Source: an uncultured Muribaculaceae bacterium
GTDB lineage: Bacteria; Bacillota_I; Bacilli_A; RF39; UBA660
DNA length: 64,000 nucleotides
Assembly: GCA_964396655.1 (NCBI GenBank)
Contig: CAYNFP010000001.1
Location: forward strand, 70,773-134,772
Direction of reading: 5' to 3'
Position 1 is the first letter of the stretch, and every line of letters begins with the position of its first letter. The notes under the pieces were generated by a model. It made no database searches. It was not told the origin of the DNA and saw only the letters and a list, made by a program, of their open reading frames with translations. Shown piece after piece: positions 3,803 to 23,384 of the stretch. Made by a program: the position numbers and the translations under genes.

Positions 3803-3805
3803 ATT

Positions 3806-5269: not shown

Positions 5270-5272
5270 ATT

Positions 5273-5860: not shown

Positions 5861-5876
5861 AAGGAGATGAAAAATT

Positions 5877-6554
5877 ATGTTTGATATAACAAATATAGCA
5901 TTTAAAATATTAAATTATGATATAAGCTATGTTGAATTAATAGGTACAATAACAGGATTAATAAGTGTTATTTTAGCAGGAAGAAATAAAGTGTCTAATT
6001 ATCCAATTGGTATAATTAATATAATATTTTTCTTCATACTATTTTATCAAGTTCAATTATATTCAGATATGTTTGAACAGGTATATTACTTAGTTGTTAG
6101 TATAATAGGATGGTATTTATGGCTTAACCCAAAAGAAAACAAAAAAAATAAAGAGAATGAACTTAGAATAACTCACAATTCTTTTAAAGAAAATATAATA
6201 TATTCAATAATACTTATAGGAGGAACAATTCTAGTTGGAATATTTATGAAAAATATACATATTTATTTTCCAAAAATATTTAGTGAACCAGCATCATATC
6301 CGTTCTTAGATGCATTTACAACAATAATGAGTTTACTTGCAATGTATATGCTAGCAAAAAGAAAAATAGACAATTGGTATTTATGGATTGTAGTAAATGT
6401 AATAGCTGTTGTTTTATATTTTGTGAAAGGAGTAAAATTATTATCAATTGAATATTTCATATTCTTAGTAAATGCTATTATATCTTTGAAATATTGGTAT
6501 AAGGTTAAAAAACAAGAAGAGAAAGAAGTTGATAAATTATGCTTAGAAAAGTAG
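5877..6554 (+). CDS. pnuC: nicotinamide riboside transporter PnuC family
   Basis: 225-aa polytopic membrane protein of PnuC size. Translationally coupled to the downstream nadR-like NMNAT/RNK gene, which is the classical pnuC-nadR arrangement. Confidence 0.6.
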   Translation: MFDITNIAFKILNYDISYVELIGTITGLISVILAGRNKVSNYPIGIINIIFFFILFYQVQLYSDMFEQVYYLVVSIIGWYLWLNPKENKKNKENELRITHNSFKENIIYSIILIGGTILVGIFMKNIHIYFPKIFSEPASYPFLDAFTTIMSLLAMYMLAKRKIDNWYLWIVVNVIAVVLYFVKGVKLLSIEYFIFLVNAIISLKYWYKVKKQEEKEVDKLCLEK

Positions 6555-7546
6555 GAATGTATGGAGGAACTTTTAATCCTCTACATTTAGGTCATGTAAA
6601 TGCTTTAATTGAAGCAAGTACAATGTGTAATAAATTATATGTTGTACTTTGCTACTCTACAAAAGCAAATGAAATTAATCACAAAGAGAGATTCAAATGG
6701 CTAAAACAAGTAACTTCAGATATGGAAAATGTTGAAGTTATAGAAATAGAAGATAATAATATAGATAAAGAAAATTATGATTGGTCAAAAGGCGCTATAG
6801 AAATTAAAAAGAAAATAGGTAAGTTAATAGATATAGTCTTTGCAGGAGATGATTATAAGGGTAAAAATATATTTGAAATATTATATCCAGAAAGTGAAAT
6901 TTATTATTTTGATAGAAAGATAATAAATATATCATCAACCAAAATAAGAAGAAATCCATATAATAATTTTCAATATTTACCAAAACCTGTTCAGAAATAT
7001 TACCTAAAAAAAGTTGTTATAATAGGAACTGAAAGTTGTGGTAAATCTACTTTAATAAGAAATCTTGCTAAAGATTATAATACAACATATGTAAAAGAAG
7101 TTGGAAGAGATGTATGTAATGAAGTTGGGGGAATAGATAATCTTCAACAAAAAGATTTTGTGGATATTTTAATAAGACAAAAGGCTTTGGAATTAGAGAA
7201 GTCAAAAGATGCTAATAAAGTATTATTTGTTGATACAGAAGCCATAATAACACTGTACTACTTGAATTTACTTTATTCAAATGATAAGCTAAAAGAAATA
7301 GAAAACTTGGGATATTCTATATCAGATTTAAGTGATTATGATTTATATATGTTTTTAGAACCGGATGTTAAATGGGTACAAGATGGAACAAGAACATATG
7401 GAGAAGATAAAACAAGAAAAAATAATAATAATATACTTAAAAAAATGTTGAAAGAAAAAAATATAAAATATAAAATAGTAAAAGGTGATTATCATGAAAG
7501 ACTTATTAAATCTCTTGAGTTAGTTGATAAATTAATAAAAAAATAG
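6539..7546 (+). CDS. nadR: bifunctional NMN adenylyltransferase / ribosylnicotinamide kinase (NadR-like, no HTH domain)
   Basis: N-terminal nucleotidyltransferase motif GGTFNPLHLGH and C-terminal P-loop GTESCGKSTL. The start may instead be the ATG at 6557. Confidence 0.75.
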   Translation: MLRKVGMYGGTFNPLHLGHVNALIEASTMCNKLYVVLCYSTKANEINHKERFKWLKQVTSDMENVEVIEIEDNNIDKENYDWSKGAIEIKKKIGKLIDIVFAGDDYKGKNIFEILYPESEIYYFDRKIINISSTKIRRNPYNNFQYLPKPVQKYYLKKVVIIGTESCGKSTLIRNLAKDYNTTYVKEVGRDVCNEVGGIDNLQQKDFVDILIRQKALELEKSKDANKVLFVDTEAIITLYYLNLLYSNDKLKEIENLGYSISDLSDYDLYMFLEPDVKWVQDGTRTYGEDKTRKNNNNILKKMLKEKNIKYKIVKGDYHERLIKSLELVDKLIKK

Positions 7547-7554
7547 GAGGAGTT

Positions 7555-9480
7555 ATGTATAAAGAACATGGATTCATAAGAATAGGAGCTATAGTACCAA
7601 AATTAAAGGTTGCTAATGTGGATTTTAATTCACAAGAAATAATTAAACAGATAAAGAATGCTTATAAAAATAAAATAAGTATAGTAACAACACCAGAATT
7701 ATCTTTAACAGGATATACATGTGCAGATTTATTTCATCAAGACATTTTAATTGAAAAAAGTTTGAGTGAATTAAAGCATATTTTAGAAGAAACTAAAAAA
7801 TTAGATATTATTAGTATAATTGGAATGCCAATAAGATATGAAAATCAAACTTTTAACACAGCAGCTGTAATTAATAAAGGTAAAGTTTTAGGAATTATTC
7901 CAAAAACTTATAGACCAAATTATTCGGAATTTTATGAAAAAAGATGGTTTTCAACTAGTTTAAATCTAAAAAGTAAATATATAAATTTATTTGGAGAGAA
8001 TATACCCTTTGATACTAAAATAATATTTAGAGACAAAGAAAATCCTAATATTGGATTTGCCATAGAAATATGTGAAGATTTATGGACAGTAAATCCTCCA
8101 AGTGATTCTCATGCTCTTAATGGAGCCACTATCATATTTAATCTATCTGCAAGTAATGAAATAATAGGAAAATATGATTACAGAAAGAATTTAGTTAAAA
8201 CCCAGTCTGGAAAGACTATTTCGGCTTACTGTTATGCATCTTCAGGAGTTAATGAGTCTTCAACAGATTTAGTATTTTCAGGACATTCTATGATTTATGA
8301 AGCAGGTTCATTATTAGAGGAAAATAATAGATTTGATTTTGAAAGTAATTTAATTTATTCGGATATAGATATAAAAAGATTAATGAATGATAGATGTAAA
8401 AATATGAGTTTTATGGAAAATTGTGATAAAAATGAATATTTATATGTAGACATAGATATAATTGACAGAATAGACGTTTTAAAAAGAAATTATGAAGAAT
8501 ATCCATTCGTTCCAAAAAACGAAGCTAAAAGAAGTGAAAGATGTAATGAAATATTTAATATACAGTCATGTGCTTTAGCAAAACGAATACTTCATACAAA
8601 TATGAAAAAAACAGTTATAGGAATGAGTGGAGGACTTGATTCAACATTAGCCTTTCTTGTAATAGTTGAAGCATACAAAAAATTGGGAATTTCAAATAAA
8701 AATATAATTGCAGTTACTATGCCTGGTTTTGGAACAACTGATAGAACTTTTAATAATGCATGTAATTTAGTTAAAAGTTATGGAGCGACTTTACTAAATA
8801 TAAGTATTAAAGATGCTTGTATACAGCACTTTAAAGATATCGAAATAGATGAAAAGGATAGAAGTGTAACATATGAAAATTCTCAGGCAAGAGAAAGAAC
8901 TCAAATATTAATGGATATTTCAAATAAAGAAAATGCTTTAGTAATTGGAACTGGAGATTTATCAGAACTTGCTTTAGGATGGTGTACTTATAATGGAGAT
9001 CATATGAGTATGTATGCAGTTAATGTAAGTATTCCTAAAACATTAGTAAGATATTTAGTTAAATGGGTTGCAGATACTTCAAATAAAAAATATCAAAAAA
9101 CATTATATGATATTGAGGGTACACCAATTAGTCCGGAATTATTACCTCCAGATGAATTAGGTAATATTAAGCAATTAACAGAAGATTCTGTAGGTCCTTA
9201 TGTTCTTCATGATTTCTTCTTATATCATTTTTTAAGATATGGAGCTAGTCCTAAAAAGATATTTGTTATAGCTAAAAAGACTTTTAAAGATAAATTTAGT
9301 GATGAAGAAATAAAAAAATGGTTAAAAATATTTATAAAAAGATTTTTTATTCAACAATTTAAAAGAAGTTGTATTCCTGATGGACCAAAAGTTGGAACAA
9401 TAAGTTTAAGTCCAAGAGGAGATTTAAGAATGCCAAGTGATGCTGATTCAGAAATTTGGTTAAAAGATTTAGAGGATTAA
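7555..9480 (+). CDS. nadE: glutamine-dependent NAD+ synthetase
   Basis: 641 aa. N-terminal CN-hydrolase (glutaminase) domain and C-terminal NAD synthetase domain with the SGGLDS PP-loop. Confidence 0.9.
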   Translation: MYKEHGFIRIGAIVPKLKVANVDFNSQEIIKQIKNAYKNKISIVTTPELSLTGYTCADLFHQDILIEKSLSELKHILEETKKLDIISIIGMPIRYENQTFNTAAVINKGKVLGIIPKTYRPNYSEFYEKRWFSTSLNLKSKYINLFGENIPFDTKIIFRDKENPNIGFAIEICEDLWTVNPPSDSHALNGATIIFNLSASNEIIGKYDYRKNLVKTQSGKTISAYCYASSGVNESSTDLVFSGHSMIYEAGSLLEENNRFDFESNLIYSDIDIKRLMNDRCKNMSFMENCDKNEYLYVDIDIIDRIDVLKRNYEEYPFVPKNEAKRSERCNEIFNIQSCALAKRILHTNMKKTVIGMSGGLDSTLAFLVIVEAYKKLGISNKNIIAVTMPGFGTTDRTFNNACNLVKSYGATLLNISIKDACIQHFKDIEIDEKDRSVTYENSQARERTQILMDISNKENALVIGTGDLSELALGWCTYNGDHMSMYAVNVSIPKTLVRYLVKWVADTSNKKYQKTLYDIEGTPISPELLPPDELGNIKQLTEDSVGPYVLHDFFLYHFLRYGASPKKIFVIAKKTFKDKFSDEEIKKWLKIFIKRFFIQQFKRSCIPDGPKVGTISLSPRGDLRMPSDADSEIWLKDLED

Positions 9481-9482
9481 AT

Positions 9483-10064
9483 ATGAGAATAGGTATATTT
9501 GGAGGATGTTTTAATCCACCACACAAAAAACATGAACAAATTGCAGTAGATTTAGTTAAACATAATTATTTGGATAAAGTAATATATGTTCCTGCAGGAA
9601 ATTTATATAATAAAAATGGTTTGATAAAAGATATAGATAGATATAATATGTTGAAACTTATAACAGAATATTATGATTTCTTAGAAGTGTCAGATTATGA
9701 ATTTGATAAATTAACTTATACTTATCAAACATTAACTTATTTTAGAGAAAAATATCCAAAAGATGAAATATATTTTATATGTGGATCTGATAACTTAAAA
9801 GAATTTGATACATGGAAAGAATATGAGTACGTATTAGAAACGTTTAAAATAATAATTATTCAAAGAAATAATGATAATTTTGATGATATAGTAAAAAAAT
9901 ACCCAAAATATTTAAATAACATTATTCTTTCAGATGTAAAAATAGATAAACTTTCGTCAACTGAAATAAGAGATGAAATAAAAAATAATAAAATTACTAA
10001 CTTAAAAAACAAATTAAAAAAAGAGGTTTTGGAGTACATTATTAGTAATAACTTATATAAATAA
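9483..10064 (+). CDS. nadD: nicotinate-nucleotide adenylyltransferase
   Basis: GIFGGCFNPPHKKH (the HxGH-type nucleotidyltransferase motif). The ATG at 9483 follows a GGAGGA RBS right after the nadE stop. ORF track lists a longer 9456 start. Confidence 0.8.
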   Translation: MRIGIFGGCFNPPHKKHEQIAVDLVKHNYLDKVIYVPAGNLYNKNGLIKDIDRYNMLKLITEYYDFLEVSDYEFDKLTYTYQTLTYFREKYPKDEIYFICGSDNLKEFDTWKEYEYVLETFKIIIIQRNNDNFDDIVKKYPKYLNNIILSDVKIDKLSSTEIRDEIKNNKITNLKNKLKKEVLEYIISNNLYK

Positions 10065-10115
10065 TGACTTTTAATAGTAAATAAGTTATAATTAATATAT
10101 ATTTAGGAGTTAAAA

Positions 10116-10928
10116 ATGTATAATAGTGAAGAAGAATTTTTAAAAAATTATGATTCAAGTAAATTTGAAAAATTATCTGTAACAACTGATATATTGATTG
10201 TATCAGTATCAGATGAACCTAGTTCAAACTATAGAAAAACCAATAAAAAGCATATGAGTATTTTACTAGTAAAAAGAGATAGTTATCCTTTTAAAGATAA
10301 GTGGTGTTTACCTGGAGGATTTTTAGATATTAAAGAAAACTTAAATGATTGTCCATTGAGAATATTAGAAAGAGAAACAAACTTGAAAAATATTTATTTG
10401 GAACAATTATATACATTCGGGGAAGTTAATAGAGATCCAAGAATGCGTATAGTTTCTACAGCTTATATGGCTTTAATTGATAAAAACAAATTAAAAGAAA
10501 ATATAAATCCTGATGCTTCTTGGTTTGATATAACTTTTTTTAAAAATGAAGATAATGTAGATATTATCTTAGATAATGGAAAAACAACAATTAAATTTAA
10601 GGCTAAAAGAACACTTAAAGATAAAACAACAGATAAATTTGAATATGAAATTATTGAGAATAACTCATTAGCATTTGATCATGCATCTGTAATATTATTT
10701 GGATTAGAAAGATTAAAAAATAAAATACAATATACTGATATAGTATTTAATATGATGCCTGAACATTTTACTTTAGGAGAATTACAGCAAGTATATGAAG
10801 TAATTTTAAATAAAAAATTATTAGATCCGGCTTTTAGAAGGATAATTGCTTCTAAAGTAGTTAAAACATCAAAAGTAAAAACGGGTGGAGGACATAGGCC
10901 TTCCGCATTATTTAAATACAAAAAATAA
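10116..10928 (+). CDS. nrtR: NrtR-like regulator (Nudix-related domain with a C-terminal winged-helix)
   Basis: A degenerate Nudix box (GGFLDIKENLNDCPLRILERETN) with a C-terminal ~100-aa extension. Located at the end of the NAD salvage locus, as is typical for NrtR. Confidence 0.55.
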   Translation: MYNSEEEFLKNYDSSKFEKLSVTTDILIVSVSDEPSSNYRKTNKKHMSILLVKRDSYPFKDKWCLPGGFLDIKENLNDCPLRILERETNLKNIYLEQLYTFGEVNRDPRMRIVSTAYMALIDKNKLKENINPDASWFDITFFKNEDNVDIILDNGKTTIKFKAKRTLKDKTTDKFEYEIIENNSLAFDHASVILFGLERLKNKIQYTDIVFNMMPEHFTLGELQQVYEVILNKKLLDPAFRRIIASKVVKTSKVKTGGGHRPSALFKYKK

Positions 10929-10939
10929 AAGGAGTTAAA

Positions 10940-11323
10940 ATGAAAAGTAAAAAGGGTTTTACATTAATTGAATTAATAGCAGTTATAGCTTTAGCTTCGA
11001 TTATTGTTGTGATAGCGGTATATTCTGTAAAAGATGCTGGAAGTAATATAAAAGCAAAAGATTATGAAAATAAAATAAATCTTATAGAAACCTCTGCAAT
11101 TTTTTATGCTCAGGATAATATAACAAGTTATCCTCAGACTATAACAATACAAGATTTAATAGAAAGTAAATATTTAGAAGTTGATATAGAAGAAAATAGT
11201 ACTACTTGTACAAGTGGAAGTGGCTGTCTATTAAATCCCATAAATAATAGTTCTATGAATGCATTAGAAATAATAATTTCAAAAGTAAATAATAATGTAG
11301 TAGCAGAAGTTCAAAATAATTAA
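10940..11323 (+). CDS. prepilin-type N-terminal cleavage/methylation domain protein (ComGC / type IV pseudopilin-like)
   Basis: N-terminus MKSKKGFTLIELIAVIALASIIVV carries the class III signal (G|FTLIE) followed by a hydrophobic helix. No other pilus or competence genes are nearby. Confidence 0.7.
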   Translation: MKSKKGFTLIELIAVIALASIIVVIAVYSVKDAGSNIKAKDYENKINLIETSAIFYAQDNITSYPQTITIQDLIESKYLEVDIEENSTTCTSGSGCLLNPINNSSMNALEIIISKVNNNVVAEVQNN

Positions 11324-11383
11324 TAAATATCAATTATTTCCTTGATATTCCGCCAATTATATGTTATTATTACTATGCTTTAT

Positions 11384-11460
11384 GGCGGTATTGGTGAAGT
11401 GGTTAACACGGTAGATTGTGGTTCTATTATACGTGGGTTCGATTCCCACATACCGCCCCA
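11384..11460 (+). tRNA. tRNA-His (anticodon GTG) with encoded G-1 and 3' CCA
   Basis: Hand-folded cloverleaf. G-1 pairs with discriminator C73. Acceptor stem GCGGTAT/ATACCGC. Anticodon stem GTAGA/TCTAT with loop TTGTGGT. T-arm GTGGG-TTCGATT-CCCAC. CCA is encoded. Confidence 0.85.
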
Positions 11461-11472
11461 TAAGTAATTAAT

Positions 11473-11505
11473 CGAACCTTCCAATAGGAGGGTTCGTTTT
11501 CTTTT
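11473..11505 (+). terminator. rho-independent terminator after the tRNA (CGAACCTTCC-AATA-GGAGGGTTCG followed by TTTTCTTTT)
   Basis: 10-bp stem with one wobble pair and a 4-nt loop, then a T-tract. Related hairpins recur at 13117-13153 and, degraded, at 12150-12178. Confidence 0.6.
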
Positions 11506-11542
11506 AATAAAAAATGATATATAATTAAAAAGAGGTGTTAAT

Positions 11543-12103
11543 ATGAACGACAATATATTACAAAGGCCGTATATATCTTTTCACGGGTTAGGTGATTTCG
11601 ATATTTCTAAATTAAAGCGAATATTAATTATGGGAATCCTTCCAAATTCAATGTTGCCAGATATAAAGCCAAGAAATGAACTTTTAGGAAATAATGATAC
11701 GAAAGTTTATTTGGTAAAATCTCCATCACTGGTTGGAACAAAATTGGCTAGGGGTTATAGGGCATACATTGAAAATTGCCTTGGATTAGTAGTAGATTTA
11801 TTTCCGTTAGATCCTAACGAATCAATTAAACGTTCATTTCCAGATGCTGGATACTTAAATGGTGCAATTGCTGTTAAAAATATAATTGGAATCATATATC
11901 CTGCTAATTTAGGGACTAAGACAATTCGAGAATTAATAAAAAAAGAAGAACTTTCTTTTGATGTAGATGAGGAAATGCTAGATTTATCATTAGAAGATGC
12001 AATTAAGTTCTTGAATGTAAACGGTTTACCAATATATGATTCAATTTCTGGCCAAAAGATAACAGATTTAGAAATTGAACAATCTTCAAGAATTAATAGG
12101 TAA
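11543..12103 (+). CDS. hypothetical protein
   Basis: 186-aa ORF preceded by the junction module AAAATGATATATAATTAA and an RBS. No recognised motif. Confidence 0.45.
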   Translation: MNDNILQRPYISFHGLGDFDISKLKRILIMGILPNSMLPDIKPRNELLGNNDTKVYLVKSPSLVGTKLARGYRAYIENCLGLVVDLFPLDPNESIKRSFPDAGYLNGAIAVKNIIGIIYPANLGTKTIRELIKKEELSFDVDEEMLDLSLEDAIKFLNVNGLPIYDSISGQKITDLEIEQSSRINR

Positions 12104-12217
12104 AACATTTTGTGCCTATTGGAATATTGCTCCATTAAGATAGTAATCAAATTTTTCAATAGGGGGTTTCGTTTTTTTATAAAATATTTTATAATCTATA
12201 AATAGGAGGTTAATTTT

Positions 12218-12670
12218 GTGGAAATAAAAGAATTGCGTTCTAAAGGTATTTGCCCAACTTGTTATAATTTTGAACACGGAGGTGTTTACCCAGATTTAGG
12301 TAAAAAATTATTATATGAAGATGATTTATTAATGTGTTTTTTTGAATCAAGACCAAGGTCAAAAGGTCATACAATAATTTTAGTAAAAGAACATTATCAA
12401 GATATGTCTTATTTACCTGATGAAGTTTGTTCAAAGGTATATTTATTTGCTAAAGAAATGATGAATATCCTGAAGGAAGCACTTGATGTTGAAAGAGTTT
12501 ACTTATGTACTATGTGTGATGGAGAACCAAATCATTTTCACGTTCAATTAATACCTAGATATCCAGAAACTAAAATAGGTTCTACAAATTTTGTTAGAGA
12601 GAGGCAAGATTATATTGAAGATTTAGAGTTAATAGAACATATAAAAAATAAGTTAATATTAAAAAAATAA
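12218..12670 (+). CDS. HIT family protein (histidine triad nucleotide hydrolase/transferase)
   Basis: Histidine triad HFHVQLIP (HxHxHxx) plus an N-terminal CxxC motif. GTG start with an AGGAGG RBS. Confidence 0.7.
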   Translation: MEIKELRSKGICPTCYNFEHGGVYPDLGKKLLYEDDLLMCFFESRPRSKGHTIILVKEHYQDMSYLPDEVCSKVYLFAKEMMNILKEALDVERVYLCTMCDGEPNHFHVQLIPRYPETKIGSTNFVRERQDYIEDLELIEHIKNKLILKK

Positions 12671-12723
12671 ATTAAAAATATTTTGATTTGTGGTAATATG
12701 ATAAAATTAATATAGGTGATTTT

Positions 12724-13089
12724 ATGAATGAAAAAATAAATGAATTAAAATCTATTTTAAATAAATGTTGGGGTATTGATACGTGCTATTCTAAATGTAA
12801 AGATTATTGGAATGAAGAAAATAAAGCTTGTGGACAATGCGCTATAACGAGTGTAATAGTAAAAAATTATTTTGGTGGAGAAATCAGAAAAACTATTGTT
12901 AACGATATGGCACACTATTTTAATTATATAAATGAAGAAGTAATTGATTTGACAAGAGAACAATTTAAAAATAATGATATAGATTATTCCAATTATAAAA
13001 TTAAAAGTGTAGAAGAAATATTAGAAAATGATGATACAAAGAGAAGATATGAGATTTTAAATTCAAGAGTTAATATATATACTAAATAA
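12724..13089 (+). CDS. YunG-like small protein
   Basis: 121 aa. Pattern CWGIDTCY...CGQCAITSVIVKNYFGG resembles the Bacillus YunG family as recalled from memory; not verified. Confidence 0.35.
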   Translation: MNEKINELKSILNKCWGIDTCYSKCKDYWNEENKACGQCAITSVIVKNYFGGEIRKTIVNDMAHYFNYINEEVIDLTREQFKNNDIDYSNYKIKSVEEILENDDTKRRYEILNSRVNIYTK

Positions 13090-13184
13090 TATTAAATGGT
13101 TTGTAAGAGAGTAATTGAACTTTCCGTTAGGATGGTTCGTTTTCTTTTTTTTTAAAATGATATATAATTAAGTAGGTGATAAAG

Positions 13185-13655
13185 ATGAATATTGAATTGA
13201 AAGAAATAAATATTAGAGAAGCAAAAGAAAAAGATATCGAAATTGTGCACAAACTTGGTCAAAATATAAGTGGGTTTGAAGTAGCATCAGAAGTGGTTAC
13301 TTTTTGGCCATTTAAGTTACTAAAAAATTCTGTTAATAAAGATGATGTTATTTTTCTTGTAATAGAAAAAAAGTTAAATATAATAGGTTTTTTAATTATG
13401 AATCTTAACTACTCGTTGTCAAAAGGCGAAATAGAAGATGTTTTTATTGTTGAAGAGGAAAGAAATAAAGGATATGGAAGCACCTTATTAAATAAAAGTA
13501 TAACTATTGCTAAGAGTAAAGGTATTGAATATAAAATAGAGTATATCAATGCTTTAACAAATTCCGCTGAAGGTTTCTTTCAAAAAAACAACTTTATTAG
13601 AGGTAATAAATTTACTTGGTTTAGTTTACCGCTTACTAATATATTTAAAAAGTAA
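13185..13655 (+). CDS. GNAT family N-acetyltransferase
   Basis: Acetyl-CoA binding motif A (VFIVEEERNKGYGSTLL). The ATG at 13185 follows a TAGGTGA RBS. ORF track lists a GTG at 13176. Confidence 0.7.
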   Translation: MNIELKEINIREAKEKDIEIVHKLGQNISGFEVASEVVTFWPFKLLKNSVNKDDVIFLVIEKKLNIIGFLIMNLNYSLSKGEIEDVFIVEEERNKGYGSTLLNKSITIAKSKGIEYKIEYINALTNSAEGFFQKNNFIRGNKFTWFSLPLTNIFKK

Positions 13656-13779
13656 GTTGGAAATATATAAAAAATATTTTGGGTTTGTTAAAAAAAGTTG
13701 CTCATATTTTTTAAATTTGAGTAATTTTATTTAATTTATTTTTTTATTTTTTATAGTATAATTGAATTGGGTGATATAA

Positions 13780-14520
13780 ATGAATATAGAAAGAAAAACA
13801 GTTTTAATAACTGGTGGTAGCAGTGGGATTGGTAAACAGATTGCTATTTTGTTTGCTTCCAATAACTATTCGGTAACTATAGTAGGACGAGATGAAAATA
13901 AATTAAAAAAAGTAAGTAATATTTATAATTATATAAAATATTTTGTATGTGATTTAGAAAATCAGAATGATATATTGAAGATGTTGAATTCAATTAATAA
14001 TATAGATGTTTTAATAAATTGTGCTGGGACTATAAATTCTATTGAAGAAAAAGCAGAATATGATTTTGAGACATTAAATAAAGTAATAGACATAAATTTA
14101 AAAGCAACAATCTCAACATCATTATTATCACTTGAAAAGATGATAAAGAATAAAATTAAGGGAGTTATTATTAACATTGGCTCGATTGTTGCAAAAAACG
14201 GATCAAAATTTTTCCCTATATATTCTGCATCTAAGGGTGGACTTGTTTCTTTTACTAAGTCAATAGCATCGCGTTTTGGTGAATATGGTATAAGATGTAA
14301 TATTATTTCTCCAGGAGTAATAAAAACACCAATGTCTTATATAGAAACACCGGATTTTGATGATTATATTGAAAGCATAGAAGATAGAACGCCATTGAAG
14401 AGATTGGGAAATACTAATGATATAGCAGAGTTAGCGCTATTTTTAGCATCAGAAAATTCATCATTTATAACTGGTCAAGAAATTATTATAGATGGTGGAT
14501 ATACATTATCTCAAGAATAA
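13780..14520 (+). CDS. SDR family short-chain dehydrogenase/reductase
   Basis: TGGSSGIGK Rossmann motif and YSASKGG catalytic YxxxK. Confidence 0.85.
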   Translation: MNIERKTVLITGGSSGIGKQIAILFASNNYSVTIVGRDENKLKKVSNIYNYIKYFVCDLENQNDILKMLNSINNIDVLINCAGTINSIEEKAEYDFETLNKVIDINLKATISTSLLSLEKMIKNKIKGVIINIGSIVAKNGSKFFPIYSASKGGLVSFTKSIASRFGEYGIRCNIISPGVIKTPMSYIETPDFDDYIESIEDRTPLKRLGNTNDIAELALFLASENSSFITGQEIIIDGGYTLSQE

Positions 14521-14630
14521 GGAGAATAATTTTATCTAACTGGCTTTATTATTAGAATAATTGGACTTTAAATAGAGATTGATTTATTTTTATTAAAAAT
14601 GATATATAATTAAAATATAGGTGGTTTAAA

Positions 14631-15146
14631 ATGTTAGAAAAATACACGATTAAAAAAGCTAACGTTGAAGAATTTGATCACATTAAAAAAATATTTGAGG
14701 CAGTTAAAGAAGATTTGAAAAAAAGAGAAATTATCATGTGGATCGACAAATAGCCACTTGATGTTATTGAAGAAGATATTAAAATTGGTTCAATGTATGT
14801 TTTAGAAAATGAAAAAAATTATATTTTAGGATGTTTTACTTTATTAAAAAATGATGATTTATATAAGAATATCAAATGGAAATTAAACGGGAAAAGTTTA
14901 TATATTGAAAGAGTAGTTATTAGCCCAGAAATGCAAGGTAAAGGTTTAAGTAATAAGATTATGAATTTTATTATTAACTATGCTAAAGAAAATAATTATG
15001 AAGTTATAAAATTAACTGTTTTGGAAACAAATACTCGTGCTTATTCTTAATACAAAAAGTATGATTTTTCTGAAGTAGATAAAGGTTCACATATGACCAG
15101 AAGTGGCAGAATAGCAATAGCTATGGAAAGGGAAGTTTTTTTATAA
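14631..15146 (+). pseudogene. GNAT acetyltransferase pseudogene (paralog of 16516..17031) with two in-frame nonsense codons
   Basis: Full-length in-frame alignment to the intact copy. TAG at 14751-14753 replaces a Tyr codon and TAA at 15048-15050 replaces a Leu codon. Preceded by the AAAAATGATATATAATTAA module. Confidence 0.75.
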
Positions 15147-15187
15147 AAAAATCAAAAAAAGTAAGAATAATTTAATTGGAGGAATAT

Positions 15188-15847
15188 ATGAAAATAACTA
15201 AATATCCGCAATCTTGTTTAATGGTTGAAACCGAAAGGGGTAAAATATTAGTTGATCCAGGAATATTAAAATATAAAGAAGAATATTTTCAAGAATGGAA
15301 TAAGGCTGATGCTATATTGCTAACTCATTGGCATAGAGATCATGTCAATGCTGAAGTTCTTAAAAAAATGAGAGCACCTATATATTCTACTTTAGAAGTA
15401 CAAAATCATTATCCGGAATTAAGAATTAGAATAATTAGTGAAAAAGATGATATATGGCTTGATTATATGTCTGTTTATGTAAAAAAAGCTGTTCATGGAT
15501 ACAATCCTAATTTAAAGGGTGGTAAAGAAGTTTTAGAAAATGTTGGTTATCTTATAGATGATATTCTTGGTGGAAATGACAATAGGCTTTATGTAACAAG
15601 TGACACAATATGTTTTGAACCTAATTTTAAAGCTGACATCGTTGCATTACCTGTAACAGGATATGGATTAACAATGTCTAGTTATGAGGCAGCTTTATTT
15701 GCAAAAGAATTAGGGGCTAAATTAGTATTGCCAATTCATATGGATAATGAACTATATCCTACAGATTTAGAATTAATGAAAAAGAATTTTGAAAAATTTG
15801 ATATAAATTATAAGGTTTTAGAAATTGAAGAAACCATAGAAATATAA
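15188..15847 (+). CDS. MBL-fold metallo-hydrolase
   Basis: HxHxDH motif (LLTHWHRDH). The ATG at 15188 follows a TTGGAGG RBS. ORF track lists a TTG at 15176. Confidence 0.7.
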   Translation: MKITKYPQSCLMVETERGKILVDPGILKYKEEYFQEWNKADAILLTHWHRDHVNAEVLKKMRAPIYSTLEVQNHYPELRIRIISEKDDIWLDYMSVYVKKAVHGYNPNLKGGKEVLENVGYLIDDILGGNDNRLYVTSDTICFEPNFKADIVALPVTGYGLTMSSYEAALFAKELGAKLVLPIHMDNELYPTDLELMKKNFEKFDINYKVLEIEETIEI

Positions 15848-15978
15848 AAAACAATCCCACAAGGATGAAAATTTTATAAATTAGATTTTTTGTGTCTATT
15901 GGAATATTGCTCCATTAAAAAATAAATGAATTATATAATTAGGGAATAAAAAAACTAGGCTAACCTAGTTTTTTAGTT

Positions 15979-16188
15979 TCATTCTATAATTGAAACATTT
16001 ACTGCTCTGTTTTTTGAATTCTTCGGATCAACTTCAACATCATATGAAACTTTTTGTCCTTCTTTAAGTTCTGTAAGTCCATCTTTAAGTGCTGAAACGT
16101 GTACGAAAATTTCTTCTTCAACTTCATCATTTTTGATAAATCCAAAGCCTTTAACGCTATTGAAAAATTTAACTGTACCTGTTTTCAT
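15979..16188 (-). CDS. cold-shock protein (CspA family)
   Basis: [18 protein letters not shown] with RNP motifs. 69 aa. Confidence 0.9.
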
Positions 16189-16515
16189 GTTATACCTCCT
16201 TAATCTTGATTATACCTCTTTAAATAATAATAAATTACGAGATTCGGAAGTATGCATTAAGCATATCATATTTAACACTACTCGTCAAATTTATATTTTA
16301 AAAAAGAGTGCCTTATGTTATTGAGTTATAAAAGCACTAACAAACTCTTAATTAATAAGAGTCTGTTTTTTAATTTAATATATAATAAAAACAAACGAAC
16401 CAGAAAAATACAACAATATATTAGTAGCTATAATAAAATATTTAGAATTGAATAACAAAGAATATATAGTTAATCATTTTTAAATATAGTATAATAAAAT
16501 TAAGGTGATTTTCAA

Positions 16516-17031
16516 ATGTTAGAAAAATACAATATTAGAAAAGCCAATATCAAAGAATTTGATGGTATTAAAAAATTATTTAAGGCAATCAAAGAAGATT
16601 TAAAAAAAAGAGAAATTGTTATGTGGACTGATAAATACCCCCTAGATGTTATTGAAGATGATATAAAAACTGCTTCGATGTATGTTTTAGAAGATGAAAG
16701 AAATAACATTGTGGGTTGCTTTACCTTGTTGAAAGATGATGAATTATACAAGAATATTAAATGGAAATTAGATGGAAATAGTTTATACATTGAGAGAGTA
16801 GTTATTAGCCCTGAAATGCAAGGGCAAGGCTTTAGTAATAAAATTATGGATTTTATTATTAACTATGCTAAAGAAAATAAATATGAGATTATAAGATTGA
16901 CTGTTCTTGAATCTAATATACGGGCACACTCCTTATATAAAAAATATAATTTTTCTGAAGTAGATAGAGGTTCACATATGACTAGAAGTGGTAGAATAGC
17001 AATAGCAATGGAAAGAAATGTATATTTATAA
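16516..17031 (+). CDS. GNAT family N-acetyltransferase (intact paralog)
   Basis: 171 aa. QGQGFSNKIM motif A. Paralog of the pseudogene at 14631. Confidence 0.75.
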   Translation: MLEKYNIRKANIKEFDGIKKLFKAIKEDLKKREIVMWTDKYPLDVIEDDIKTASMYVLEDERNNIVGCFTLLKDDELYKNIKWKLDGNSLYIERVVISPEMQGQGFSNKIMDFIINYAKENKYEIIRLTVLESNIRAHSLYKKYNFSEVDRGSHMTRSGRIAIAMERNVYL

Positions 17032-17100
17032 AAAAATGACTCCGATATGGAGTTTGTTTTTTTATTTTAAATAATATATAATTAAGTTAGGTGAATATGT

Positions 17101-18081
17101 ATGATAGATTTTAATTTTATAATAGATTCTAATTATGTTGCTTTTTGGCTTTTAAGAAGAATTAATACTACTGAAGATAAAGAATTAATTGACCTAAAAG
17201 AAAAGCTATTAGGAAAACATAAAAAAGGATATAGTAAGTTAAAAGGAAAAGAATTATTAAATATTAAAATATATATTGATTATTTAAAAGGTAGTAATCT
17301 TATTAAAGAATTAGTAAGTAATGAAAATTTTAAAAATTTTCATAAAAATAAATTTAGTAATATGGGTGAATATGAATTAGCAATATCTATTTTAATGAAT
17401 ATTATTCAAGTTGAAGATTCAAATATAAATAATTTAAAAAATATTCTTTGGAATAAATATAATGAAGACTATAAAAAATTGCTTTGGAGCATGAATGAAA
17501 ATGTAGAAGTATATATGGAAGATTCTGATGTAAAGGAATTAATTGAAGAATTTAAAAAGACAGAAATTTTTAATAAATTATTAGAAGAAACAAGAGAATA
17601 CTATGAAAAAATTAAGTATGAATGGAATAGTAGAAAAAATGAAATTAATAAGTTTTTAAACACATATTTAAGAATAAGTTTTAATTGTCTTCCAAATACA
17701 TATATAGTTCATCCGATTTCTCATGTGGGTTGCAATTATGATGGAAAAATTATATGGGGTCATACAAAGGGATTAAGCGATATTTTTTATAACTTAGCAT
17801 ACTTGGTTCATGAAAGCTTACATATAATTTTACCTCCAATTTCTAATATAGTTGATGGAGAATATATTAATCATGCAGTTATTGAAATGATTTCGGATTA
17901 TGAATTATATAGTTTATTATCAAAAAAAGATAAATTTGGAGAAGGGCATCCGTTCTTAAGAGAATATAAAGAAAAAATATATCCGTTTTGGCAAAAATAT
18001 AAAGAATCAGAATTAAAAGATTTAAATATAAGACAATTTGAACAGTATTTATTTGAAGAAATATTTAGTATAATCAAATAA
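17101..18081 (+). CDS. hypothetical protein with an HExxH motif (possible zinc-dependent hydrolase)
   Basis: 326 aa. LVHESLHII with a downstream E (AVIEMISDYE). Preceded by a junction module variant. Confidence 0.4.
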   Translation: MIDFNFIIDSNYVAFWLLRRINTTEDKELIDLKEKLLGKHKKGYSKLKGKELLNIKIYIDYLKGSNLIKELVSNENFKNFHKNKFSNMGEYELAISILMNIIQVEDSNINNLKNILWNKYNEDYKKLLWSMNENVEVYMEDSDVKELIEEFKKTEIFNKLLEETREYYEKIKYEWNSRKNEINKFLNTYLRISFNCLPNTYIVHPISHVGCNYDGKIIWGHTKGLSDIFYNLAYLVHESLHIILPPISNIVDGEYINHAVIEMISDYELYSLLSKKDKFGEGHPFLREYKEKIYPFWQKYKESELKDLNIRQFEQYLFEEIFSIIK

Positions 18082-18092
18082 AGGAGAAAATT

Positions 18093-18431
18093 ATGAATTT
18101 TAATATATCTAAAGTAAAAATAATTGTTACTTCACCGATTGAAAATGCAGAAGAAATAAGAAAAGCCCTTGGTGATGCAGGTGCTGGTGTTATTGGAAAT
18201 TATTCACATTGTAGTATTTCTGAAAGAATTGTAGGCACATTTAAAGGAAATGATGCTACTAATCCATATATTGGAGAAAAAAACAAATTAGAAGTAGTTC
18301 AAGAAGAAAAAATTGAAGTTCAATGTGACATAAAAATAATTAAAGAAGTTTTAAAAAAATTGAGGGAAGTTCATCCATATGAAGAGCCTGCAATAGATAT
18401 TGTACCTTTAATTAATGAAGAAGATTTATAG
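18093..18431 (+). CDS. small PII-like (CutA / Nif3-insert-domain-like) protein
   Basis: 112 aa. C-terminal HPYEEPAIDIVPL resembles the conserved C-terminus of the PII-like CutA/Nif3 insert fold. Confidence 0.35.
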   Translation: MNFNISKVKIIVTSPIENAEEIRKALGDAGAGVIGNYSHCSISERIVGTFKGNDATNPYIGEKNKLEVVQEEKIEVQCDIKIIKEVLKKLREVHPYEEPAIDIVPLINEEDL

Positions 18432-18457
18432 TTGAAGTTATCTTAGAAAGGATTGTT

Positions 18458-19051
18458 ATGGAAAAATTAATTTTGTTAGATTTTGTAAAATCAATACTTG
18501 AATTTATGAAAAAGAACCCAACATGTTTTAATTCTGAAAAGTTGGATATAATGTGCAATATGATAGATTACATAAATAATTATGTAAGTGATGAAGAAGC
18601 TACTATGATAAACAGACAAATACAAGCTATTAAAAATACATTAAATCTTGAAAGTGAAGATTTTGGTTATGGAGATAACTTTAATGAAGAATTTAATAAA
18701 AAAGATTTGATGTCACTTGCAACAATATATTTAATGGCATTAAGCAAAGATAAAAAAATATATACTGTTGATGATAGTTTTATTTATTATATTATAAATA
18801 GTTTAAGAGGAATAGAGTATAAACATTATTCTAATTTATTAAAAGGTTTACTTTATCAAAGATTGTTAGATGGCATAAAATTAATTCAAGAAACTGAACC
18901 TTTAAACATAGATAGAATAAGGATAACTTTCAATACTTTAATTGATTCAAAAACAATAGAAAATGATATGACTGAAGAAGAATTTGAAAAAATTATGCAA
19001 GATTATTTAGAAAAAAGGTCGATACCAATAAATCCTTTACACAAAAAATAG
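18458..19051 (+). CDS. hypothetical protein
   Basis: 197-aa ORF followed by a terminator hairpin (AATCGAACTGA...TCAGTTCGATT plus T-run at ~19064-19100). Confidence 0.45.
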   Translation: MEKLILLDFVKSILEFMKKNPTCFNSEKLDIMCNMIDYINNYVSDEEATMINRQIQAIKNTLNLESEDFGYGDNFNEEFNKKDLMSLATIYLMALSKDKKIYTVDDSFIYYIINSLRGIEYKHYSNLLKGLLYQRLLDGIKLIQETEPLNIDRIRITFNTLIDSKTIENDMTEEEFEKIMQDYLEKRSIPINPLHKK

Positions 19052-19172
19052 TAATATTATAAACTCAATCGAACTGATTTTAAGTCAGTTCGATTTTTTT
19101 TGATTTTTTTAAACCAATAATATATAAGTACATATTCCCATAATTTTAATATATTAAATAGTGGGAGGGTGA

Positions 19173-20027
19173 ATGGGAACTGCAATAAAAAAAATAGTAG
19201 TAATTGGAGGAGATATTAGATATTTATATTTAATAAAAAAATTTAAAGAGAACGGTTTTGATGTTGATTTATTAGGTTATGAAAAAACTATTATAGACGC
19301 TAATAAAATAACAATAGATGAATTAAATATAAGTAATTATGATTTTATATTATTTCCAGTATCAAGCATTAATGATGAAGGTACAGTTAAAGCCGAATTT
19401 AGTGATAAAGTAATCAATATATCTAATATTAATTTTAATCTAAAAGATAATGCCTATGTTATTACTGGTATTAAAACAAAATTTATGGAAAAATTAAATC
19501 TTAAAAATGTAATTTATTTTATGGAAGATGATGATACCGCTATATATAATTCAGTAGCTACAGCAGAAGGAGTAATTATGAAGATAATAGAAAATACTGA
19601 TTATACAATATATGGCTCTAATATTTTAGTGTTAGGATATGGCAGATGTGGTGAAATAATAGCTCGTTATCTAAAAAGTTTAGGAGCTAAAATATCGGTT
19701 TTAGTAAGAGATAATAAAAAATATGCTGAAACTGAAATACTTGGATATATTCCATATAAGACAAATGAATTAATTAAACATTTAGGGGAATTTAATATAA
19801 TTATTAATACTGTTCCTGATTTGATTTTAGATAAAGAAAAAATTGATTTAATAGATTCTAATGCTTATCTTTTAGATATTGCGTCTGTTAATGGTTTTGA
19901 TATCGAATATGCAAAAGAAAAAAATATCAAAGTTGAAAGATTTATGAGTATACCAGCGGTTGTTGCTCCTTTATCTGCTGCTCCAATAATTTTTAATAAA
20001 ATAAAAGAGGTGATTTTTAATGATTAA
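19173..20027 (+). CDS. dpaA: dipicolinate synthase subunit A
   Basis: 284 aa. N-terminal KIVVIGGDIRYL and a second Rossmann segment LVLGYGRCG. Overlaps the downstream flavoprotein-like dpaB. Matches the SpoVFA architecture. Confidence 0.75.
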   Translation: MGTAIKKIVVIGGDIRYLYLIKKFKENGFDVDLLGYEKTIIDANKITIDELNISNYDFILFPVSSINDEGTVKAEFSDKVINISNINFNLKDNAYVITGIKTKFMEKLNLKNVIYFMEDDDTAIYNSVATAEGVIMKIIENTDYTIYGSNILVLGYGRCGEIIARYLKSLGAKISVLVRDNKKYAETEILGYIPYKTNELIKHLGEFNIIINTVPDLILDKEKIDLIDSNAYLLDIASVNGFDIEYAKEKNIKVERFMSIPAVVAPLSAAPIIFNKIKEVIFND

Positions 20028-20592
20028 GATAGGTTTTGGTATAACCGGATCATTTTGTATGTTTGAAAAAGTGTTAAAGGGTTTAAAAGAATTAGTTGAT
20101 AATGATTATGATATATATCCTGTTGTTACTTTTAATACTAATAATATTAGTACGCGTTTTGGTAGTAATAAAGAATTTATTCAAAAGATTGAAGATATAA
20201 CAGGTAAAAAAGTGGTAAACACAATTGAAGGAGCAGAAACATTTGGTTCTAATAAAATGGATGTTTTTGTAATAATGCCAGCTACTGGTAACTTTATTGG
20301 AAAAATGGCTAATGGAATCATTGATAACCCTGTATTAATGGCAGCTAAAGCAACACTTAGAAATAATAATCCATTGTTAATAGGAATTTCTAGTAATGAT
20401 TCTTTAGGTTTAAATGGTGTTAATATTATGAAATTATATAATACAAAAAATATTTTCTTTATTCCTTTTTCTCAAGATGATTGTCTAAATAAACCAAATT
20501 CTTTAATAAGTCATTTTGATTTATTAATAGAATCTTTAAAAAAAGCTTTAGTTAAAGAACAGTTGCAGCCAATTATTAGAGAAAAGAAATAA
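20020..20592 (+). CDS. dpaB: dipicolinate synthase subunit B (flavoprotein)
   Basis: 190 aa. IGFGITGSFC flavoprotein-fold N-terminus. 8-bp overlap with dpaA. Confidence 0.75.
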   Translation: MIKIGFGITGSFCMFEKVLKGLKELVDNDYDIYPVVTFNTNNISTRFGSNKEFIQKIEDITGKKVVNTIEGAETFGSNKMDVFVIMPATGNFIGKMANGIIDNPVLMAAKATLRNNNPLLIGISSNDSLGLNGVNIMKLYNTKNIFFIPFSQDDCLNKPNSLISHFDLLIESLKKALVKEQLQPIIREKK

Positions 20593-20605
20593 GGAGGTGA
20601 TATAA

Positions 20606-21448
20606 ATGAAAATGTTAACCGCTATAATAACGCCTTTTAATGACGATAAAAAAGTTGATTATAAGGAATTATCAAAAATAGTAGATTATTTAATAGAAAA
20701 TAAAACGGATGGTTTGGTTGTACTAGGTACAACTGGAGAAAATCCAACATTAACTGAAAAAGAAAAAATAAAAATCGTTAAAAAAGTTATTAAAGTAAAT
20801 AAAAAAAGAGTTCCTATAATTGTTAATGTAGGAACTAATAATACTAAAGAAACGGTTATGTTTGCTAAAAAAATATGTAAACTAAATATATATGGTTTAA
20901 TGGTAGTAACTCCTTATTATAATAAACCTACAGAAAGGGGTTTATATGCTCATTATAAAGAAATAAATGATAATGTTAATAAACCAATTATGATATATAA
21001 TGTACCAAGTAGAACAGGTGTTAATATGACTAGTGATACAATTATAAAATTATCTGAATTAAAAAATATAAAAATGCTTAAATATGCTTATGATTCTAAA
21101 GAAGAGGTAAAAAAAATAGTAGAAAATTCTGATATTGAAGTATATAGTGGAGATGATGGAAATGTACTAAATTTTATGGAAGTTGGTGCTTTAGGAGTTG
21201 TGTCAGTATTATCTCATGTAATAGGTAAAGAATTTTATGATATTATTGAAAATAATGATAGAGAGAAATTAGATAAATATAAAGATTTAATAAAATTATT
21301 ATTTAAAGAATCAAACCCTATGCCAGTTAAATATATGATGAGTAAGTTAGGTTTTAAAAGTATGAATTTGAGGTTACCATTAGTAGAGATAAGTAATAGT
21401 CTAAAAAAAGAAATAGATGATTATTTTGAAAATAATATTATTATATAG
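20606..21448 (+). CDS. dapA: 4-hydroxy-tetrahydrodipicolinate synthase
   Basis: 280 aa. TAIITPF...GLVVLGTTGE motif of DapA/NAL-family aldolases. Confidence 0.85.
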   Translation: MKMLTAIITPFNDDKKVDYKELSKIVDYLIENKTDGLVVLGTTGENPTLTEKEKIKIVKKVIKVNKKRVPIIVNVGTNNTKETVMFAKKICKLNIYGLMVVTPYYNKPTERGLYAHYKEINDNVNKPIMIYNVPSRTGVNMTSDTIIKLSELKNIKMLKYAYDSKEEVKKIVENSDIEVYSGDDGNVLNFMEVGALGVVSVLSHVIGKEFYDIIENNDREKLDKYKDLIKLLFKESNPMPVKYMMSKLGFKSMNLRLPLVEISNSLKKEIDDYFENNIII

Positions 21449-21506
21449 AGGATATTCCTCTATATTTTTTTAAGACCTTCATAAAATACAATGTGGAGAT
21501 GATTAT

Positions 21507-23327: not shown

Positions 23328-23384
23328 TTTTTTTTATTTTAAAATATATATTTAAAATGTTAAAATATAATTGGAGATGATTTT

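Follow-up and report, generated by a model that had tools for sequence, protein, structure and literature searches.

The subject of this analysis is a 64-kb stretch of contig CAYNFP010000001.1 from an uncultured bacterium, here called the window (the whole stretch is meant throughout), and in particular the gene array at 11,385-17,100. The window has a G+C content of 22-32% and its plus strand holds nearly all genes. At the head of the array lies a tRNA-His(GUG) gene (3' end ...CCGCCCCA), placed as a single copy at 11385-11460 on the plus strand by ARAGORN and Rfam (63 bits), which we propose as the primary attachment site. It is followed by a series of small genes, all but one on the plus strand: a gene for a 186-aa protein without family match (11543-12103), a HIT-family gene (12218-12670), a YunG-family gene (12724-13089; Pfam YunG, 4.5e-34), a GNAT acetyltransferase gene (13185-13655), an SDR oxidoreductase gene (13780-14520), a GNAT pseudogene (14631-15146), a gene for an MBL-fold hydrolase (15190-15847; Pfam Lactamase_B_3), a cold-shock gene (15979-16188) and an intact GNAT gene encoding 171 aa (16516-17031). 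The cold-shock gene (Pfam CSD) lies on the minus strand as the sole inverted gene of the block and has its own promoter-like site, found in a promoter scan, and a long leader. The pseudogene contains two in-frame stops and is a paralogue of the intact GNAT gene, with 81% nucleotide identity in the first 300 nt and 80% amino acid identity over 85 residues. Beyond the array a gene for an HExxH protein (17101-18081; motif HESLH) and a 112-aa gene (18093-18431) form a conserved distal anchor on the plus strand (17101-18431). A first-pass annotation made from the letters of the window had named these genes, and Pfam confirmed its calls of HIT, YunG, GNAT, SDR, MBL, the inverted CSD gene and the second GNAT; the pseudogene and the HExxH motif were found as it had described them.

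The same annotation had pointed to four junctions between the genes that carried a common module of terminator hairpin, T-tract, -10-like box, ribosome-binding site and start codon. The 18-mer at the core of this module, AAAATGATATATAATTAA, was recovered as three exact copies (11511, 13154 and 14596) and one variant with two mismatches (17068), that is four matches where 0.74 were expected, a number reached in 0 of 100 shuffles. Across the 64-kb window no further copy was present outside 11.5-17.1 kb. A 68-nt repeat family comprised 11461-11528, 13104-13171 (82%), 12136-12203 (65%) and 14546-14613 (62%). A second repeat, GTG(C/T)CTATTGGAATATTGCTCCA, had been overlooked. Its two copies (12112-12134 and 15892-15914) directly follow the stop codons of the 186-aa gene and the MBL gene, and in other genomes no part of the junction is better conserved; its 33-nt full form is here named D4. 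As an independent check, a junction profile for nhmmer was trained on 11 junctions, all from other contigs and none from the window. It gave six window matches, all on the plus strand and all within 11,451-17,104: 11451-11548 (E 5e-19), 12103-12208 (1e-17, model positions 2-107), 13106-13190 (7e-9), 15888-15925 (2e-6), 17039-17104 (9e-4) and 14554-14623 (0.04). No copy was found outside 11.45-17.1 kb when the entire window was scanned. The module is therefore real, but the junction is larger than first described, D4 having been missed.

Chance or convergent similarity of AT-rich promoters and terminators might produce such a pattern, as might a repeat dispersed over the genome in the manner of miniature inverted-repeat transposable elements or repetitive extragenic palindromes. 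The 18-mer with its ribosome-binding site indeed matches singly in many AT-rich gut genomes, and in a genome collection most matches to this pattern were single and unrelated, with two loci (L056 and L097) carrying the complete composite including D4. Nevertheless, E-values down to 5e-19 from a profile trained on foreign copies, the confinement of all window copies to 11.45-17.1 kb and a homology that spans 110 nt including the GC-containing D4 make both explanations highly improbable.

A full junction of about 110 nt is composed of D4, a 13-nt spacer, a terminator hairpin, a T-tract, a TATAAT box, the sequence GAGGTG and the start codon; the consensus reads AAAACGTTTTGTGCCTATTGGAATATTGCCCCA, TTAAGAGAGTAAT, CGAACCTTCCAATAGGAGGTTCG, T-tract, (A)TATAAT(TAA), GAGGTG, ATG. 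D4 is the near-invariant 33-nt sequence AAAACGTTTTGTGCCTATTGGAATATTGCCCCA, which is placed after the stop codon of the upstream gene and ends in GCCCCA, as does the 3' end of tRNA-His. When the 62 nt after each CCA or D4 end were folded for 30 copies, a stable hairpin followed by a T-run appeared in nearly all of them. The hairpin usually starts 10-15 nt past the CCA end, and more than ten different stems stand on a common GAAC...GTTC base. Hairpin and T-run are thus kept despite sequence change, as expected of an intrinsic terminator. A scan also showed terminator-like sites to be enriched in the region (10 against 1.3 expected), and the hairpin at 11473-11496 and the variant at 17038-17054, both called terminators in the first-pass annotation, scored as terminator-like. 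The terminator part of the module is accordingly upheld by the conservation of structure. The promoter part is suggested by the TATAAT box, whose position is fixed at 6-9 nt upstream of the ribosome-binding site, and on this ground the box may be an active promoter.

The junctions of the window, all on the plus strand, differ in completeness. Junction copy 1 (11461-11542), detected by the repeat search and by the hidden Markov model, consists of the spacer, a hairpin at 11473-11496 (RNAfold -16.2 kcal/mol), a T-tract and the 18-mer with TATAAT at 11511-11528; its ribosome-binding site GAGGTG ends 5 nt before the ATG at 11543. It has no D4, because the tRNA takes the place of D4. The junction upstream of the HIT gene (12102-12217) is full but partly degraded: AAAACATTTT and D4 at 12112-12134, with the core mutated to GCTCCA, are followed by a decayed hairpin at about 12150-12172, TATAAT at 12190-12195 and AGGAGG at 12204-12209. 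A short junction upstream of the YunG gene (12671-12723) seems, from its sequence, to resemble the module. Before the first GNAT gene lies a junction without the D4 core (13104-13184; GGTTTGT followed by AAGAGAGTAAT), with a hairpin at 13116-13139, the 18-mer at 13154-13171 and the ribosome-binding site AGGTGA. The SDR gene is preceded by a divergent junction with TATAGTATAATTG (13656-13779), which was not significant (nhmmer E about 1 in a small search). The GNAT pseudogene follows a junction with a decayed hairpin (14554-14630; 18-mer at 14596-14613, ribosome-binding site AGGTGG). The D4 copy after the stop codon of the MBL gene (GTGTCTATTGGAATATTGCTCCA at 15892-15914) is continued by a truncated junction (together 15882-15925). 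The last junction, copy 10 (17032-17100), has an unrelated hairpin at 17038-17054, the 18-mer variant at 17068-17085 and the ribosome-binding site AGGTGA, and is the right-hand partner of a deletion or insertion joint in a sister species that is described below.

The D4 copy before the cold-shock gene has lost its downstream gene (window 15949-16400), and the minus-strand sequence upstream of this gene bears a faint likeness to the junction which was not significant. A past inversion around the cold-shock gene is possible. The terminator before dpaA (19067-19128) consists of AATCGAACTGATTTTAAGTCAGTTCGATT and a T-run followed by AATAATATATAAGT and resembles the part of the junction from hairpin to TATAAT; against the junction profile it gave E 0.4 even in a small search, which is not significant.

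For D4 itself there was no convincing fold and no Rfam match. The tRNA was the sole Rfam match at the gathering threshold, with nothing else credible even at E-values up to 10, and the junction had no match in the phage and plasmid collections. Two matches to D4 in viral contigs (36-41% GC) lacked the CCCCA end and the rest of the junction and were put down to chance; the 18-mer alone gave 38 single unrelated matches in viral contigs and is too unspecific by itself. Several ideas on the nature of D4 were rejected. As a minihelix or half-tRNA derived from tRNA-His it would match the tRNA 3' end in only the last 11 nt (ATAYYGCCCCA), the putative acceptor strands are unpaired, and the 5' resemblance, judged by eye, is inconsistent across host tRNAs. 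Pairing of D4 with TTCCAATAGG, either as an antiterminator or as an attC-like fold, is the minimum-energy fold of the single-stranded DNA, but z was only about -1.8, variant positions were not compensatory and D4 also occurs with hairpins that do not contain the complement. A resemblance to dif/Xer sites was weak and was rejected by eye.

The junction was found between different single genes at at least 13 independent loci of uncultured low-GC Bacilli. These lie on contigs or loci from other genomes or metagenomes, designated by L-numbers (L056, L097, L110, L120, L121, L130, L132, L136, L142/L148, L146, L155 and L161). When metagenomes were scanned with the D4 core, 59 contigs were recovered, and the junction was present in all 15 with a G+C content of 30% or less. 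Applied to 1.2 Mb of fetched loci, the profile revealed arrays in which 2-5 co-oriented copies follow each other at distances of 450-1200 nt, corresponding to one gene per unit, and its significant matches were confined to arrays of the tRNA-His type. The cargo varies from array to array and includes GNAT, NUDIX, HIT, YunG, SDR, MBL, methyltransferase, CYTH, UDG-like and YbaK-like deacylase genes as well as nitroreductase, S66 LD-carboxypeptidase, Imm5-like and M3 peptidase genes. A few cassettes recur. The product of the first GNAT gene of the window is 71% identical (blastp) to its orthologue in a cassette of L097, and the 112-aa gene has counterparts in L121 and L148 with 75-83% identity. 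Models of anti-phage defence systems gave nothing meaningful on the cassettes of the window.

Short-read assemblies of the window's own strain (L001, L002 and L048; Logan, SRR8925774/5) break inside the duplicated GNAT/junction region, and many metagenome contigs terminate in a junction. Junction arrays are therefore systematically fragmented in public assemblies. L103 (10100-11002) and L148 (1-800) are identical through the 112-aa gene, the junction and about 85 nt of the next open reading frame and unrelated thereafter, which may reflect an assembly chimera at the repeat or a recombination inside the cassette gene.

Wherever a contig reaches the head of an array, the array begins at the CCA end of tRNA-His(GUG), and the first junction directly follows this end in the window, L056, L130, L136, L146 and L155. 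L056 contains two different tRNA-His(GUG) genes (6304-6380 and 1079-1154), of which only the GGCG...type, similar to that of the window, heads a cassette array. On L167-169, from a more distant metagenome-assembled genome of the Bacilli, the sequence downstream of tRNA-His consists of a hairpin, a T-tract, TATAAT, a ribosome-binding site and a 113-aa gene, the orthologue of window 18093-18431, and there are no cassettes. Because tRNA-His, the module and the 113-aa gene occur there by themselves, the module is probably the native intergenic region, and cassettes would sit between tRNA-His and the 112/113-aa gene. The same tRNA end is also occupied by a prophage (L160), by a restriction/GmrSD island (L161) and by recombinase islands (L142, L170), so that tRNA-His is a genuine integration hotspot. 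The prophage belongs to the sister species (L160 1-8900; Logan SRR19071532_164), encodes tail, tape-measure-like and M23 lysin proteins and leaves an 18-nt 3' fragment of the tRNA, TTCCCACATACCGCCCCA, as a right-hand attachment-site scar. The island of L161 (910-9930; JGI Ga0621872_00037) is 8.9 kb in size, lies between tRNA-His and a CCCCATTAAG repeat and carries genes for two DNA methyltransferases, an AlwI-type nuclease, an HTH_17 protein, a helicase and GmrSD; no recombinase was called in it.

Relatives of the window strain differ in gene content at this locus. Contigs of the sister species (sample SRR19071532) show 89-92% nucleotide identity to the window in syntenic parts. In this species the 3' fragment of tRNA-His together with the hairpin and T-tract of copy 1 is fused to the ribosome-binding site of copy 10 and the HExxH gene: L160 8910-8995 corresponds to window 11443-11528 and L160 8947-10338 to window 17041-18430. 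Copy 1 thus runs straight into copy 10, and the nine genes of window 11,529-17,040 are absent. The joint lies inside a 49-nt stretch common to the two module copies. A pair of near-identical metagenome contigs differs in the number of units. L155 consists of tRNA-His, one GNAT-type cassette, D4 and an unrelated flank, and in L120 the same cassette and D4 are followed by another cassette (two or more in all). The two sequences have 2 mismatches over about 680 aligned bases ending at the ...TTGCCCCA of D4, that is at the GCCCCA end, and are divergent beyond it. L130 and L132 have a common GNAT cassette of about 95% nucleotide identity (estimated by eye from the alignment) in different left contexts, whose homology begins on the left at CCCA and on the right includes D4. 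In more distant relatives (75-81% NrtR identity) NrtR is followed by unrelated genes, or the contig ends at the tRNA. Presence and absence of genes hence vary with breakpoints in the junction, both in the sister species and between L155 and L120. These differences, the confinement of the module to one block of the window and the arrays of other genomes support the proposal of the first-pass annotation that the locus is a cassette array assembled by recombination at a conserved junction beside a tRNA hotspot.

A clue to the enzyme comes from larger elements at the same tRNA. L142 carries an 8.6-kb island that extends from the CCA of tRNA-His to a D4 and is followed by ordinary cassettes. Its genes include those for a 198-aa resolvase-like protein, a 565-aa large serine recombinase (10471-12168, with D4 at 12711) and a GNAT. 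Relatives of this recombinase form a tight family. A recombinase 68% identical to it is carried by 16 contigs, of which 10 were returned (L170-179) and 4 inspected; it lies in an island of about 7.5 kb that starts at the tRNA-His CCA. The island of L170 ends with GGTTTTATGCCTATTGGAATTTTGCCCCA about 52 nt after the stop codon of the recombinase gene (10001-11689, D4 at about 11742), and the host flank and terminator come next. Since D4 ends both islands beside the recombinase gene, it can be regarded as the element-side arm of the right attachment site of serine-recombinase islands at tRNA-His. The first 20 nt or so of the cassettes (TTAAGAGAGTAATCGAACC) resemble the left arm of the islands (TTAATAGGGTAATCAAACC) as well as the native flank. 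With a left end like the left arm of the islands and D4 as the right arm, the cassettes appear to carry both arms. Islands and cassettes have the same single orientation, with the CCA end of tRNA-His on the left and the GCCCCA-ending D4 on the right. Judged by sequence, the internal junction is similar to an island attP, and every insertion would leave an attB-like site on the tRNA side. Because D4 is an attachment-site arm of its islands, this family of serine recombinases is implicated, presumably acting in trans. A recombinase at one end was found in the autonomous islands (L142, L170) only and not in the window, and there was none beside the arrays of the window, L056, L103, L121, L130, L161 and L167, which fits action in trans. 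The island recombinases are not members of the Ccr group, since their scores against the CcrB, CcrA and CcrC models remained below threshold (130-143 bits against a cut-off of 900 for CcrB); they were also far below the XisF cut-offs.

That tRNA-His is used not only by serine-recombinase islands (L142, L170) but also by a prophage (L160) and a defence island (L161) could also mean that each unit is the remnant of a full-size island or prophage after a large deletion, so that the array would be a graveyard of serial integrations. The many decayed junctions of the window would suit such scars. We consider this quite improbable in view of three observations: units invariably hold a single gene and in many arrays have kept both arms, the same cassette occurs at 95% or more nucleotide identity in different positions and contexts, and the cargo differs from the gene set of the islands.

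Our preferred reading, which we hold to be reasonably probable, is that window 11,385-17,100 is a tandem array of about nine miniature recombinase-less cassettes, anchored at tRNA-His and equipped with the attachment arms of islands, and that it is derived from and probably mobilised by serine-recombinase islands. A cassette would extend from just after one ...GCCCCA end to the next GCCCCA and would comprise, in this order, the 13-nt spacer (TTAAGAGAGTAAT-like), the terminator, the T-tract, TATAAT, GAGGTG, the start codon, one small gene and D4. The terminator would stop transcription arriving from upstream, and every cassette gene would be an insulated transcription unit because each has its own terminator and promoter-like box. 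The cassette ends would be the two attachment-site arms of the islands of about 8 kb that integrate at the CCA end of tRNA-His and contain genes for a small resolvase-like protein as well as a large serine recombinase; D4 would be the arm beside the recombinase gene. Each insertion would regenerate the tRNA-side site, because the native flank of tRNA-His resembles the other arm of the island, and this site would have the role of the attI of integrons. Each insertion would also create an internal D4 junction in the role of attC. New units would stack beside the tRNA, intervening units could be lost, and the mini-cassettes would be moved by the serine recombinase in trans.

The array of the window would be partly decayed and mostly fossil, reshaped mainly by homologous recombination between junction copies. 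It looks old because both D4 cores read GCTCCA, several junctions are without D4 or hairpin, one of the GNAT genes has become a pseudogene, and a homologous crossover is the only event that could be dated.

A number of observations weigh against the cassette reading. The TATAAT boxes went unlisted in a simple scan for the sigma-70 consensus because they lack a matching -35 hexamer, and the number of promoter-like sites in the region did not exceed that expected from shuffles. The conservation of D4 (0.93 against 0.57-0.74) is inflated, because D4 served as the search probe. A tblastn search of the 64-kb window found no serine recombinase, and the link between recombinase and cassettes is drawn from the end sequences shared with two island types. 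attP and attB are normally the only pair of sites that large serine recombinases join. For insertions to follow one another, the hybrid site on the tRNA side would still have to act as attB, which the sequence makes plausible. Finally, the breakpoint between window and sister species lies in the TATAAT region and not at the GCCCCA core, and for this reason the event looks like ordinary homologous recombination.

The last point leads to an explanation that dispenses with a recombinase altogether. The junction would be no more than the native terminator of tRNA-His and the promoter of the gene behind it, duplicated together with the genes that were captured; gains, losses and swaps would be due to RecA-dependent recombination between the junction copies of about 100 nt, for example with transformed DNA, and D4 would be kept for another reason such as a function in the 3' untranslated region. 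Besides the joint inside the promoter box, such accretion would agree with the lack of an adjoining recombinase at most arrays, with L167-169, where the module is the native intergenic region between tRNA-His and the 113-aa gene, and with the gene for a competence-type pilin just upstream of tRNA-His. It leaves unexplained, however, why D4 stands at the ends of both serine-recombinase islands beside the recombinase gene, why the limits of cassettes coincide with the GCCCCA core, why orientation is strictly single and unit size one gene, and how units with new genes gain their D4. We therefore regard it as unlikely.

A broader form of the cassette reading, which we put forward tentatively and with less than even confidence, is that uncultured low-GC Bacilli possess a working analogue of integrons driven by a large serine recombinase. 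The tRNA-His CCA would be the fixed capture site and D4 the cassette site. Helper islands of about 8 kb would provide the recombinase in trans, and this enzyme would insert and excise single-gene cassettes and exchange them between species, each cassette bringing its own terminator, promoter and ribosome-binding site. As in integrons, there is a single attachment point at the head, the single-gene cassettes are co-oriented and separated by a repeated element resembling a recombination site, the cargo is rich in small enzymes such as GNATs, and arrays can persist without an adjacent integrase. These likenesses, above all the row of short unrelated accessory genes that point the same way and share a repeated junction, might suggest a classical integron or an attC cluster lacking an integrase. 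Such an origin is extremely improbable. Pfam found no tyrosine recombinase among ten window open reading frames of 275-836 aa, nor was there one beside other arrays or among the called genes of L161 and L167. Inspected by eye, the junction lacks the RYYYAAC/GTTRRRY boxes of attC, which the candidates ATCGAAC and GTTCGTT violate. This agrees with the view of the first-pass annotation that the locus is not a canonical integron. Moreover, the implicated recombinase is a serine enzyme rather than the tyrosine recombinase IntI and is not encoded beside the array, conservation of the junction extends to its sequence and is not limited to structure, and each cassette brings a promoter-like box and a terminator rather than being promoterless under a common Pc. 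The hosts also belong to lineages in which complete integrons have not been found, a survey having detected none in any of its Firmicutes and Tenericutes genomes (PMC4889954).

The nearest precedents are the composite islands of the staphylococcal cassette chromosome (SCC) and the ssrA islands of Dehalococcoides; integrons and rAID-1 arrays are functional analogues. SCC elements, which are moved by the large serine recombinases Ccr, insert in one orientation at the 3' end of rlmH, regenerate the site and stack in tandem; in composite islands recombinase-less pseudo-SCC units persist between the same repeats, the units being 3-60 kb in size. Insertion in one orientation at the 3' end of a conserved gene, tandem stacking and recombinase-less units with the same bounding repeats are features shared with the arrays described here, as would be the regeneration of the site; the island recombinases also match the Ccr models, if only below threshold. 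Unlike SCC, the target here is tRNA-His, the units are single genes of 0.5-1.2 kb, and each has a conserved 33-nt arm, its own terminator and a promoter-like box.

In Dehalococcoides multiple tandem islands lie downstream of the tmRNA gene and are bounded by a repeat of its 3' end (PMC3146451). Their integration module, present in 16 of the 31 described islands, consists of serine recombinases of about 540 aa and about 200 aa, the islands are about 10 kb or larger, and the crossover takes place in the T-loop region (PMC3146451). The same pair of large and small serine recombinases occurs in L142 and L170, and in the ssrA islands nucleotides just upstream of the repeat are conserved, as with D4. 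In contrast, most units here are single genes without an integration module, the crossover would be at or after the CCA end, and the ssrA islands have no built-in terminator-promoter module. [quoted passage not shown] The present arrays are likewise not integrons, and one of their cassettes is Imm5-like, whereas rAID-1 has an adjacent tyrosine recombinase of the XerD family, mostly immunity genes and no tRNA anchor. Reused or 'mobile' promoters are near-alike promoter-bearing sequences upstream of non-homologous genes, sometimes across taxa (PMC3575422); the sequence found here differs in being a complete junction of arm, terminator, promoter-like box and ribosome-binding site at one type of locus.

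If the cassette reading is correct, Gram-positive lineages have reached an integron-like layout for collecting genes with a different enzyme. The model could be put to the test through its three defined components, which are the 33-nt site, the end of tRNA-His and the candidate family of recombinases, and the breaks of short-read assemblies of these organisms at the tRNA-His locus would find an explanation. The cargo (GNAT, NUDIX, HIT, S66 carboxypeptidase, YbaK-like deacylase, nitroreductase and Imm5-like genes) may, as a speculation, represent a pool of small detoxifying and protective enzymes among gut and digester bacteria. Large serine recombinases are tools of genome engineering, and a natural system whose expression cassettes are compact and self-insulated would be attractive for applications.

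The surroundings of the array also deserve mention. Upstream, at 3161-10928, lies a cluster for NAD salvage and synthesis with genes for PncA-like, NAPRTase, NUDIX, PnuC, NadR-like, NadE and NadD-like proteins followed by an NrtR-type regulator. It is complete, is conserved in relatives and is of use as a synteny anchor. Between this cluster and the tRNA, immediately upstream of the latter, is a gene for a small protein (10940-11323) with a prepilin N-terminal methylation motif, similar to competence or type IV pilins, which is also present in L042. On the other side of the array a comparison of window 18432-23335 with L160 10340-11650 showed that the sister species has neither the 197-aa gene nor the dpaA-dpaB-dapA-asnB block, which encodes dipicolinate synthase and other proteins, and instead carries a RimK-type ATP-grasp gene at this position. 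Because this block is absent, the variable region reaches beyond the cassette array and touches sporulation genes. Further downstream the window encodes an AbiEii-type toxin of a type IV toxin-antitoxin system and a 292-aa protein with transposase-like HTH_28/HTH_23 domains (42678-43508 and 34896-35774).

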